Shown here: positions 2,524 to 22,569 of the stretch, one piece after another
How the letters are laid out: each line of letters begins with the position of its first letter
How positions within the stretch are numbered: position 1 is the stretch's first letter
NCBI RefSeq assembly: GCF_045037415.1
Contig: NZ_CP173438.1
DNA length: 64,000 bases
Direction: 5' to 3' (one strand)
DNA from: Escherichia coli
GTDB lineage: Bacteria; Pseudomonadota; Gammaproteobacteria; Enterobacterales; Enterobacteriaceae
Program-made: the position numbers and the translations under genes
Notes under the pieces: model-generated
What the model saw: the letters and a program-made list of their open reading frames with translations, nothing else
What the model was told of the DNA's origin: nothing
The model's database searches: none

Positions 2524-3213
2524 ATGAAAAAAATTATCACTTTGATGTTGTTTTTGACATTCTTTGCCCACGCGAACGACTCCGAGCCTGGCAGCCAGTA
2601 TTTAAAGGCAGCAGAGGCCGGAAACCGACGCGCACAATATTTTCTTGCCGACAGCTGGTTTAGCTCCGGCGATTTGAGCAAAGCCGAATATTGGGCACAG
2701 AAAGCCGCCGACAGCGGTGATGCCGATGCCTGCGCGCTGTTGGCGCAGATCAAAATCACCAATCCGGTCAGTCTGGACTATCCACAAGCAAAAGTGCTTG
2801 CCGAGAAAGCAGCGCAAGCGGGCAGTAAAGAAGGTGAAGTAACGCTGGCGCATATTCTGGTAAATACGCAAGCGGGTAAACCGGATTATCCAAAGGCGAT
2901 TTCGCTGTTAGAAAACGCCTCGGAAGATCTGGAGAACGACTCTGCCGTCGATGCCCAAATGCTGCTTGGTTTGATTTACGCCAACGGCGTGGGCATTAAG
3001 GCCGACGATGACAAAGCAACCTGGTATTTCAAACGTAGCTCTGCGATTTCCCGAACCGGTTATTCCGAATACTGGGCGGGAATGATGTTCTTAAACGGTG
3101 AAGAGGGTTTTATCGAGAAGAATAAACAAAAGGCGCTGCACTGGTTGAATCTGAGCTGTATGGAAGGATTTGATACCGGTTGTGAAGAGTTTGAAAAATT
3201 AACTAACGGTTAA
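2524..3213 (+). CDS. yjcO: Sel1-repeat (TPR-like) periplasmic protein YjcO
   Basis: Signal-peptide start MKKIITLMLFLTFFAHA, then repeated Sel1-type motifs; 229 aa from this ATG, matching recalled YjcO length; convergent with gltP. Confidence 0.8.
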   Translation: MKKIITLMLFLTFFAHANDSEPGSQYLKAAEAGNRRAQYFLADSWFSSGDLSKAEYWAQKAADSGDADACALLAQIKITNPVSLDYPQAKVLAEKAAQAGSKEGEVTLAHILVNTQAGKPDYPKAISLLENASEDLENDSAVDAQMLLGLIYANGVGIKADDDKATWYFKRSSAISRTGYSEYWAGMMFLNGEEGFIEKNKQKALHWLNLSCMEGFDTGCEEFEKLTNG

Positions 3214-3655
3214 GGTAGGCGCAGCAAACGTCGCATCAGGCATTGATGTCGGATGCGGCGTAAACGCCTTATCCGACCTACAAAAATCACGCCAAATCAG
3301 GCTATTGCGCTGTCTGACGTAGGCCTGATAAGACACGTCAGCATCGCATCAGACATTGATGCCGGATGCGGCGTAAACGCCTTATCCGACCTACAAAAAT
3401 CACGCCAAATCAGGCTATTGCGCTGTCTGGCGTAGGCCTGATAAGACGCGGCAAGCGTCGCATCAGGCGTTGATGTCGGATGCGGCGTAAACGCCTTATC
3501 CGACCTACAAAAATCACGCCAAATCAGGCTATTGCGCTGTCTGGCGTAGGCCTGATAAGACGCGTTAAGCGTCGCATCAGGCGTTGATGTCGGATGCGGC
3601 GTAAACGCCTTATCCGACCTACAAAAATCACGCTACATCAGGCTATTACTCAGTC
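3214..3655. repeat. Tandem array of four ~114-bp REP/BIME-type palindromic units
   Basis: Unit beginning gtaggcctgataagacgcg..cgcatcaggc..gatgtcggatgcggcgtaaacgccttatccgacctac recurs at 3319, 3432 and 3546 with few substitutions, after a partial first copy. Confidence 0.85.
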
Positions 3656-3701
3656 AGGCATCCACACATTGCCGGGTGGATATCCCCCCGGCAATCTTCA
3701 A

Positions 3702-5015
3702 TTACTGATCTGCTGTTTTATCAAATTTGCCCAACATTTCACGCTCGTAGGCCAGCGCTTTTTTACGGTCAAATTTGTGTTCCCACTTGGCAATCACCAG
3801 CACCGCCAGCGCATTACCCACCACGTTCAGCGCAGTACGCGCCATATCGAGGATACGGTCAACACCGGCAATAAACGCCAGACCTTCCAGCGGAATACCT
3901 ACGCTACCCAGCGTTGCCAGCAGCACCACAAACGACACGCCCGGCACGCCAGCAATCCCTTTCGAGGTCACCATCAGCGTCAGCACCAGAATGATTTCCT
4001 GCCAGATGGACAGGTCAATGCCATACAGCTGAGCGATGAAAATAGCGGCAATACTTTGATACAGCGTCGAACCATCAAGGTTAAAAGAGTAACCGGTCGG
4101 CACCACGAAACTGGTGATCGACGCCGGTGCACCGTAGGCTTCCATCTTCTCAATAATTCGCGGCAGCACGCTTTCAGAACTGGCAGTAGAGTACGCCAGA
4201 ATCAGCTCATCTTTCAGAATACGAATCAGGATCCAGACACTTAACCCGCACAGGCGCGCCACAATTCCCAGTACGACCAGCGCGAAGAACAGAATGGCGA
4301 AATGCACCAGCAGCACCAGTTTCGCCAGTGGCCACAGAGAAGAGAAACCAAAGTTAGCCACCGTCACCGCAATCAGCGCAAACACACCCACCGGCGCATA
4401 ACGCATCACCATGTGAGTCACTTTAAACATGGTTTCAGAGATGGAGCGGAAAACGGTCACCAGCGGTTCACGATGCGTCGCGGGCAGGGATGAAAGCCCC
4501 AGACCAAACAGCACCGAGAAGAAGATGATCGGCAGCATTTCGCCTTTCGCCATCGACGCCACGATGTTCGTCGGCACCAGCGACAAAATCGTGCCCATAA
4601 TGCCGTGGGAACTGCTTTGTACCGCTTCCGTAGTGCTCTGATATTTCGAGATATCGACGGTCGCCAGCTGCGACATATCCACCCCGGCACCGGGCTGGAA
4701 GACGTTCGCCAGAGTGATCCCCAAAATGATGGCGACGGTGGTGATCACCTCGAAGTAGATAATGGTTTTCGCACCAATACGCCCGAGCTGTTTGGCATCA
4801 CCAACACCCGCGATACCCACCACCAGCGTGGAGATCACAATCGGCACAACAATCATTTTGATCAGATGGATGAAGATATCACCCGCCGGAGAGAGCAAAT
4901 TGACGACCAGCCAGTCGCGGCTGTCGCTATGGTAGTGCAGGTAGCTTCCCAGGAGAATGCCCAGCACCATAGCAAACAGAATCTGCCAGGCCAGGCTGAA
5001 TTTTATATTTTTCAT
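3702..5015 (-). CDS. gltP: Glutamate/aspartate:proton symporter GltP
   Basis: 437-aa ORF starting MKNIKFSLAWQILFAMVLGILLG, a dicarboxylate/amino-acid:cation symporter recognised as GltP. Confidence 0.93.
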   Translation of the reverse strand: MKNIKFSLAWQILFAMVLGILLGSYLHYHSDSRDWLVVNLLSPAGDIFIHLIKMIVVPIVISTLVVGIAGVGDAKQLGRIGAKTIIYFEVITTVAIILGITLANVFQPGAGVDMSQLATVDISKYQSTTEAVQSSSHGIMGTILSLVPTNIVASMAKGEMLPIIFFSVLFGLGLSSLPATHREPLVTVFRSISETMFKVTHMVMRYAPVGVFALIAVTVANFGFSSLWPLAKLVLLVHFAILFFALVVLGIVARLCGLSVWILIRILKDELILAYSTASSESVLPRIIEKMEAYGAPASITSFVVPTGYSFNLDGSTLYQSIAAIFIAQLYGIDLSIWQEIILVLTLMVTSKGIAGVPGVSFVVLLATLGSVGIPLEGLAFIAGVDRILDMARTALNVVGNALAVLVIAKWEHKFDRKKALAYEREMLGKFDKTADQ

Positions 5016-14089: not shown

Positions 14090-14215
14090 AATTGTCGGAT
14101 GCGCTCCGACCTACATCTGGCAACGGCTGTAGGTCGGATAAGATGCGCCAGCATCGCATCCGACAACAAGCGCCGGATGCGGCGTGAATGCCTTATCCGG
14201 CCTACATTCGGCAAG
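14090..14215. repeat. REP palindromic elements downstream of acs
   Basis: gtcggatgcgctccgacctac, ctgtaggtcggataag and gccggatgcggcgtgaatgccttatccggcctac motifs of the REP family. Confidence 0.7.
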
Positions 14216-21966: not shown

Positions 21967-22110
21967 AAAGCATCAACACCAACCGGAACCTCCACCACGT
22001 GCTCGAATGAGGTGTGTTGACGTCGGGGGAAACCCTCCTGTGTACCAGCGGGATAGAGAGAAAGACAAAGACCGGAAAACAAACTAAAGCGCCCTTGTGG
22101 CGCTTTAGTT
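21967..22110 (+). ncRNA. ryjA: Candidate small RNA (position and size consistent with RyjA)
   Basis: Sigma-70-like promoter TTACAC-17bp-TAACAT at 21932-21960, then ~140 nt ending in a hairpin aaagcgcc-cttgt-ggcgcttt plus T-run at 22083-22110; no coding signal. Confidence 0.4.
22083..22110 (+). terminator. Rho-independent terminator hairpin at the soxR 3' end (probably bidirectional)
   Basis: 8-bp GC-rich stem aaagcgcc/ggcgcttt, 5-nt loop, followed by agttttgtt. Confidence 0.5.
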
Positions 22111-22569
22111 TTGTTCATCTTCCAGTAAGCGTGCGCCGGTACCTTCTTCTCCTAAGCGGTCGCCCGGGTTACGCAACGGGCAATCACTGCGCGAAAGGCA
22201 GCCACAACCAATACATCCATCCAGTTCGTCACGCAGCGCCACTAAGGTATGAATGCGCCGATCCAACTCTTCTCGCCATTGGGACGAAAGCTGTTTCCAC
22301 TCTTTCGCACTTAACGTATGCCCTTCTGGCAACACGCCAAACGCTTCACGAATGGTTGCGAGCGGAATGCCAATACGCTGAGCAATTTTGATAATTGCGA
22401 CATATCGCAACACATCACGTTTATATCGCCGCTGATTGCCGCTATTACGGATACTGGTAATCAACCCTTTGCTTTCATAGAAATGCAGCGCCGATACCGC
22501 CACACCGCTGCGTTTCGCCACTTCGCCGGGTGTTAGCAGCGCTTTAATGCGGGGTAATTTCTTTTCCAT
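22105..22569 (-). CDS. soxR: Redox-sensitive MerR-family activator SoxR
   Basis: 154-aa ORF with MerR HTH and C-terminal [2Fe-2S] cluster motif [12 protein letters not shown]. Confidence 0.96.

Follow-up and report, generated by a model that had tools for sequence, protein, structure and literature searches.

The convergent genes yjcO (+ strand) and gltP (- strand) are separated in this Escherichia coli window, by which we mean the whole 64-kb stretch of DNA analyzed here, by an intergenic gap of 488 bp, nearly all of which is taken up by an array of REP palindromes. What kind of element is this array, how did it arise, and does it do anything for its two neighbors? We took the annotation of the flanking genes from strain SK1144, which is 100% identical to the window over 2950-3950, mapped it onto the window, and used it together with the list of open reading frames. 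The yjcO coding sequence (Sel1-repeat protein) runs from 2524 to 3213 on the + strand and ends in a TAA stop codon at 3211-3213; the gltP coding sequence (glutamate/aspartate:proton symporter) occupies 3702-5015 on the - strand. An earlier interpretation made from the letters of the DNA alone (here, the sequence-only reading) had placed the repeats between convergent yjcO and gltP, and the SK1144 annotation agrees. Directly upstream of yjcO, the window has an ABC-transporter operon (826-2413, +), as do other window-like strains, including CFT073; in K-12-like strains, fdhF stands upstream of yjcO where the window-like strains have this operon.

Structure of the repeat units

The array consists of four head-to-tail units between 3215 and 3659 with a period of 113-114 bp. 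Tandem Repeats Finder reported a repeat at 3220-3647 (period 114, 3.8 copies, 93% matches, no indels, score 751), a gap-free repeat finder returned four copies at spacings of 113, 114, and 114 bp, and self-identity at a lag of 114 was 0.67, compared to a maximum of 0.387 over 1000 shuffles. All three bear out the four-copy tandem of approximately 114 bp given in the sequence-only reading. The units are u1 at 3215-3318 (104 bp), u2 at 3319-3431 (113 bp), u3 at 3432-3545 (114 bp), and u4 at 3546-3659 (114 bp). That reading also called the tandem almost perfect, which is slightly generous: u2/u3 and u3/u4 are 93-94% identical, u2/u4 are 88.6% identical, and pairs with u1 82-88% (82-89% for edge-unit pairs), with a 10-bp deletion in u1 and 7 spacer substitutions in u4.

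Each unit is built from a Z2 REP of 37 bp, a 6-bp linker, an inverted Y REP of 34 bp, and a 37-bp spacer. The Z2-type REP is read tail-first (GTAGGCCTGATAAGACGC...GCGTCGCATCAGGC, 36-37 bp), the head-to-head linker is (A/G)TTGAT, and the tail-to-tail spacer, U, is AAAAATCACGCCAAATCAGGCTATTGCGCTGTCTGGC. Unit 1 opens with a truncated Z2 REP of 27 bp (GTAGGC|GCAGCAAACGTCGCATCAGGC, 3215-3241, delimited by sequence parsing), whose first base is one past the yjcO stop. This Z2 is without its 10-bp left arm, CTGATAAGAC, which makes a hairpin of its own impossible; K-12-type alleles have a full Z2 in its place. Linker 1 (ATTGAT, 3242-3247), Y REP 1 (GTCGGATGCGGCGTAAACGCCTTATCCGACCTAC, 3248-3281, from folding and alignment), and the 37-bp tail-to-tail spacer U1 (3282-3318) complete the unit. 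Unit 2 comprises a 36-bp variant of the Z2 REP with two stem mismatches (3319-3354), linker 2 (ATTGAT, 3355-3360), a variant Y REP that begins GCCGGAT and has a C.A stem mismatch (3361-3394), and spacer U2 (3395-3431). Unit 3 has a 37-bp Z2 REP (3432-3468), linker 3 (GTTGAT, 3469-3474), Y REP 3 (3475-3508), and spacer U3 (3509-3545), and unit 4 has Z2 REP 4 (3546-3582), linker 4 (GTTGAT, 3583-3588), Y REP 4 (3589-3622), and a diverged terminal spacer, U'4 (3623-3659), which carries the 7 substitutions and has no stable fold (-2.2 kcal/mol). Eight bp beyond the array end, and six bases from the gltP stop codon, lies a unique 28-bp palindrome, ATTGCCGGGTGGAT/ATCCCCCCGGCAAT, at 3668-3695, detected by repeat search and folding. 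It is kept in every allele that we read, including those with zero units, and no U-tract stands beside it on either strand.

The open reading frames inside the array were regarded as repeat artifacts in the sequence-only reading, and we concur: the 35-aa ORFs follow the 114-bp period, and the annotation of the identical genome, SK1144, made with the NCBI pipeline, has no gene between yjcO and gltP. One could instead suppose that these ORFs (a 60-aa frame at 3253-3435, +, and the periodic 35-aa frames) encode small proteins, given that they are open and have start codons. However, they recur every 114 bp on both strands, multiply or vanish with copy number, are missing in the 40% of genomes that have zero units, and are nowhere annotated, and we regard coding as practically negligible in probability. 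For annotation, the span should be labeled as a REP/BIME repeat region and the ORFs within it ignored.

We delimited the REPs by direct sequence parsing combined with Rfam. Searching the window with a strict IUPAC consensus for REPs returned no match; the loop spacing of that pattern is wrong, and the Y arms are variant here. The sequence, the folding, and the matches to the Rfam family RF02564 (naRNA4) agree that each unit has one Z2 and one inverted Y, as expected from the REP palindromes noted in the sequence-only reading, and alignment of the copies, which that reading named as the check for tandem, REP-like repeats, contains the Z2 and Y consensus and the hairpins. GTAGG and CCTAC occur at every full REP of the array. 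On either strand, the 77-nt block of Z2, linker, and Y forms a pair of separate hairpins; its RNA folding energy is -40 to -41 kcal/mol, with z of -5.6 and -6.2 for the two strands. As single-stranded DNA, the unit folds at -22 to -23 kcal/mol (z -5), and the whole intergenic region has a folding z of about -10 on both strands. In an alignment of 15 distinct units, drawn from this locus in several strains, from K-12 REP325, and from a second BIME in the window, 96.7% of cells pair in the two-hairpin structure, compared to 25-41% with the partners slid. Compensatory changes occur at four pairs of this alignment, among them a locus-specific U-A pair: the Y arms are GUCGGAU/AUCCGAC here, versus GCCGGAU/AUCCGGC (C-G) in the canonical Y. 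These observations make the array a four-unit tandem of REP palindromes, a BIME-2-type cluster, an identification of which we are very nearly certain.

On the minus strand, units 3, 4, and 2 match RF02564 at 77.1, 75.2, and 69.0 bits, above the gathering score of 59.5 bits, and unit 1 falls under it at 46.7 bits; the RF02564 model was built on REP325 units. The only other match to this family in the 64-kb window is at 14132-14202 on the minus strand (68.9 bits). It belongs to a second REP cluster at 14090-14205, which comprises a Z2-like/Y pair at 14132-14202 and a short REP-like palindrome upstream at about 14093-14115. Elsewhere in the window, at 21972-22112 (+), there is a full-length match to the Hfq-binding small RNA SraL (RF01408, 153 bits).

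The three units that exceed the RF02564 gathering score do so in gltP-sense orientation, and a role in the nucleoid was proposed for REP325 (Qian et al. 2015). The units could accordingly be read as genes for naRNA4-like nucleoid-associated RNAs that bind HU and condense the chromosome. Against this, the RF02564 match reflects nothing more than the hairpins of the common Z2 and Y, the array contains no promoter-like site, and a 2026 preprint, with the original senior author among its authors, reports no nucleoid compaction by REP325, no stable HU-DNA-RNA complex, and no REP-REP contacts. Because the preprint contradicts the REP325 claim, we rejected the HU role on the literature, and we consider naRNA genes at this locus highly improbable.

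Copy number variation and origin of the array

We read 22 alleles of the locus directly and derived the number of units from the intergenic length together with counts of Z2 arms and spacers; regex counts of REPs run too low for overlapping or variant copies. The intergenic length ranges from 77 to 1053 bp, corresponding to 0-9 units. K-12-like alleles have a full Z2 at both ends and measure 77/78, 191, 303/304, 417, 529/530, or 641 bp (0 to 5 units), and window-like alleles have the truncated Z2 first and the diverged spacer last and measure 145, 260, 488, 826, or 1053 bp (1, 2, 4, 7, and 9 units). CFT073 carries 9 units (1053 bp), and O157:H7 carries one unit with a 14-bp spacer deletion (177 bp). 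In every allele read except that of EC28, the boundary formed by the truncated Z2 and the diverged spacer tracks the upstream ABC-transporter operon. EC28 has flanks 99.9% identical to those of the window, yet it has one full Z2 and 0 units. At least one REP stands beside the yjcO stop in all 22 alleles except that of E. whittamii, in which a Y REP begins nine bases past the stop.

For an unbiased sample, we searched by the two flanks alone and drew 60 records at even ranking steps, 58 of which had both flanks together. Among these 58 genomes, 23 (40%) had 0 units, 7 had one, 5 had two, 2 had three, 17 (29%) had four, 2 had five, and 2 had seven. The zero-unit genomes, about 40% of the sample, have a single Z2 REP at the locus. 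The exact allele of the window accounts for 6 of the 17 four-unit genomes in the sample, and about 10% of all records are at least 99% identical to it, counts that come from samples of a clonally biased genome collection. Sublines of K-12 differ from one another: MG1655 has 641 bp and 5 Y, and DH10B and JW5503 (a BW25113 derivative) have 530 bp and 4 Y. Copy number at this locus is thus strongly strain-variable and its change can be fast, which settles in the affirmative what the sequence-only reading had suspected about strain variation. Unit number would change by unequal recombination or slippage between units that are 93-100% identical, and RAYT cleavage and strand transfer in the linkers may add to the change in size.

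This variability also invites the reading that the array is a functionless minisatellite, selfish or neutral, in which a REP doublet landed, unequal crossing-over expanded it, and the number of units is without effect. The spread from 0 to 9 copies has no fixed optimum, and copy number differs among K-12 sublines and near-identical B2 strains. In addition, some 40% of the genomes in the sample get by with one REP, and any further units may accordingly be without effect; the array also includes units with stem mismatches and a truncated REP. However, the hairpins are kept with compensatory changes, the comparable array REP325 measurably affects its neighbors, and the stop-adjacent REP is retained in all of the 22 alleles but that of E. 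whittamii. We judge a wholly neutral array to be less likely than not, but, with so many genomes keeping one REP only, neutrality of the extra copies is a serious rival.

Other kinds of change also occur at the locus. E. coli BH100N (NZ_CP025703.1, about 1-1020) has IS1397, of the IS3 family, in the loop of the first Y REP of the array (about 3248-3281 in the window), with the junction ...GGGGTGCAGTTCAAA|ACGCCTTATCCGACCTAC. IS1397 prefers REP loops, and the BH100N insertion fits this preference. In about 100 of 5,422 records, the flanks were too distant to join, and hence further insertions or longer arrays probably exist. Moreover, the first Y REP of the array lacks a CG in the MG1655 reference. 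Given that resequencing reported "+CG at 4,296,380, gltP/yjcO intergenic" at frequency 1.0 in MG1655 stocks (PMC4330922), the missing CG is probably a reference error.

For practical purposes, this is a highly variable locus that confuses read mapping, and when evolution studies take MG1655 as the reference, the "mutations" that they call between gltP and yjcO lie within the array. The array could, by the same token, act as a strain-typing marker.

The spacer bears on how the array grew. Searched alone by blastn, the 37-bp spacer had matches in 2,637 of 5,426 complete E. coli genomes, with 1-8 matching places in each, counted anywhere in the genome. In the four genomes in which we also read the well-conserved spacer copies of the array, the two counts are the same (SK1144, 3; the identical window, 3; DH10B, 4; LF82, 7). 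When 100,044 species-representative genomes were scanned for exact 21-mers of the spacer, matches came only from Escherichia sp. E1V33, from E. whittamii, and from one contaminant contig. E1V33 has five spacer copies; E. whittamii gave one exact match, and two spacers could be read in it. In both, the array comes directly after a 229-aa ORF of the size of yjcO. The contig, NZ_JAAIYA010000177.1, is a 240-bp piece at 0.53x coverage in the assembly of a myxobacterium, Pyxidicoccus caerfyrddinensis; it contains two units of the array and is almost certainly E. coli contamination.

On these sequence comparisons, the spacer appears to be confined to the yjcO-gltP locus and to Escherichia, and the locus has carried repeats from a time before E. 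coli and its sister species diverged. The REP pair itself is a member of the dispersed E. coli REP/REPIN family. Because the spacer is unique to the locus, the array grew by local tandem duplication of the block of Z2, Y, and spacer, and not by repeated insertion.

Possible effects on yjcO and gltP

A promoter scan found no sigma-70-like match inside the array; the only nearby match is at 3170-3199, in the end of yjcO. Transcription of the array is therefore likely to come only from its neighbors, on the + strand as the 3' UTR of yjcO and on the - strand as read-through from gltP. In transcripts of either gene, the two stable hairpins per unit, which form on either strand, would block 3'-to-5' exonucleases, and they may also stop RNA polymerase in part, with the assistance of Rho. 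The predicted outcome is a 114-nt ladder of protected 3' ends and less transcription into the opposing gene. By analogy with REP325, the array could therefore act on both mRNAs, yjcO and gltP, as a hairpin barrier in their common 3' UTR and as a partial terminator. At REP325, the upstream mRNA is stabilized, downstream transcription is down about 8-10 fold, and a ladder of truncated, hairpin-ended transcripts appears that is partly Rho-dependent. More generally, where a REP lies between convergent genes, both genes are more highly expressed. A preprint (Harris 2026) reports that REP effects are context-dependent and, in general, finds no longer mRNA half-lives with terminal REPs; for gltP and yjcO, it gives differential-expression rows only. 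We put the chances of an RNA-level function at about even.

The end of the array next to yjcO deserves separate comment. The remaining Z2 arm of unit 1 is predicted to pair with the Y1 arm (-32 kcal/mol) near the yjcO stop, and so the truncated first Z2 changes the first hairpin available to yjcO mRNA in this lineage, which is a counterpoint to function. REPs within 15 nt of a stop codon reportedly lower translation via ribosome stalling, an effect said to have been described by Liang, Rudd and Deutscher in 2015.

Termination could also reside in the spacer. According to this reading, the locus-specific spacer is an intrinsic terminator for gltP, repeated three times: in gltP sense only, spacers 3509-3545, 3395-3431, and 3282-3318 form a 14-bp hairpin (-18 to -20 kcal/mol, z -3.3 to -3.7) followed by AUUUUUG, with U-tracts on the - strand at 3506-3510, 3392-3396, and 3279-3283, respectively, and the gltP-proximal palindrome offers no U-tract of its own. 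However, the spacers of K-12, of E. whittamii, and of the gltP-proximal B2 variants fold like shuffles (z -1.4 to -1.6) and have four U only. The copy nearest gltP, U'4, is unstructured, zero-unit alleles have no spacer, and the terminator scan of 3214-3701, which found no canonical intrinsic terminator in either direction, did not report the spacer. Because the hairpin is not conserved across alleles, we demoted the spacer terminator to a minor rival; it is unlikely to be more than a lineage-specific curiosity of hairpin and U5.

At the level of DNA, gyrase is likely to act at the Y REPs, which would thereby absorb positive supercoils that arise between the convergent genes. Such a role could even be the main one, with the array as a strong, transcription-independent gyrase site, possibly cruciform-forming, that relieves supercoiling between yjcO and gltP. 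Topo-seq found gyrase cleavage sites over-represented in BIME-2, mostly in y REPs, and this cleavage is transcription-independent, its signal going up when transcription is blocked. The convergent setting and the fold of the unit as single-stranded DNA (-22 to -23 kcal/mol, z -5) point the same way. However, only a subset of BIME-2 is cleaved according to Topo-seq; the text of that paper does not name this locus, and two of its supplementary files mention neither gltP nor yjcO. We consider a mainly DNA-level array to be less likely than not. It is compatible with an RNA-level role, and the RNA-barrier reading, the neutral reading, and the DNA-level reading are not mutually exclusive. The combined statement, that the array is a BIME-2 that was amplified locally and has a function as RNA barrier and gyrase site, is the one toward which we lean, by somewhat more than even odds.

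How much the number of units matters is a further question. About 40% of the sampled genomes carry a single Z2 REP, and it follows that the multi-copy state is not required: it is dispensable and at most a matter of quantitative tuning of expression. In the strongest version of such tuning, the array would be a fast-mutating "dial" in which the number of units, from 0 to 9, heritably sets the expression of gltP and/or yjcO; the spacer hairpin with its U5 and the truncated, stop-adjacent REP could add to the effect. We think it improbable that the array works as such a dial. The natural alleles, with 0 to 9 units, nevertheless constitute a ready series for testing the effect of REP copy number on the 3' ends and stability of convergent mRNAs.

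Comparison with known repeat systems

BIME-2 elements combine z2 and y REPs through a short linker, S, and form tandem arrays of several copies, more in some strains than in others, whereas BIME-1 elements consist of z1 and y with a long, IHF-binding linker; the linkers of BIME-2 and of atypical BIMEs differ from locus to locus (Ton-Hoang 2012, PMC3333891). In the nomenclature of Gilson, Bachellier, and Hofnung, the array shares with BIME-2 the inverted alternation of Y and Z2 (four of each here, with one Z2 truncated), the short head-to-head linker (6 bp here), the tandem copies (3.8-4 here and 0-9 among E. coli strains), and the absence of an IHF site. It differs in its 37-bp spacer, whose restriction to the yjcO-gltP locus argues against a family-wide s, l, or r motif; if the spacer is no motif of the s/l/r type, the array would count as an "atypical BIME".

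We rejected BIME-1 because the REPs are Z2 and not Z1, the linker is 6 bp, the IHF consensus is absent, and the element is tandem. The role as an IHF site that the sequence-only reading had listed does not hold for this array, which combines Z2 with a 6-bp linker; neither strand of 3214-3701 matches the IHF consensus WATCAANNNNTTR, and it is BIME-1 elements that bind IHF. We also rejected a CRISPR array, as the spacers here are copies of one another and are not unique.

Like the REPIN/RAYT system (Bertels and Rainey 2011; Nunvar 2010; Ton-Hoang 2012), the array has an inverted REP doublet flanked by GTAG/CTAC, which is what RAYT, the REP-associated tyrosine transposase, recognizes. The two differ in how copies multiply: REPINs are dispersed, whereas here the tandem duplication is local and includes the unique spacer DNA. 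REP325 (naRNA1-6; yjdM-yjdN; RF02564) is closer, with tandem units of Z2, linker, and Y, identical spacers, and a position in a 3' UTR, and the Z2 and Y sequences of the array match those of REP325. REP325 has a linker of 13 bp, a spacer of 17 bp, a period of about 101 bp, canonical GCCGGAT Y arms, and co-directional neighbors, whereas the window array has a linker of 6 bp, a spacer of 37 bp, Y arms of GTCGGAT/ATCCGAC, and convergent neighbors.

The closest relative is the orthologous locus of MG1655, "B319, located at gltP-yjcO", which was a substrate of TnpA-REP (RAYT) with four linker sites cleaved in vitro (PMC3333891). Its Z2, linker, Y, and spacer sequences agree with those of the window. 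B319 comprises 5 Y and 6 full Z2, with a Z2 at both ends, in 641 bp, and its spacer is 36 bp; the window allele comprises 4 Y, 3 full Z2, and 1 truncated Z2, with a diverged spacer at its end, in 488 bp, and its spacer is 37 bp. Given that B319 was used as a RAYT substrate in 2012, the element at this locus had already been described, and the array in the window is not a new kind of element but one allele of a documented, polymorphic array of BIME-2 type.
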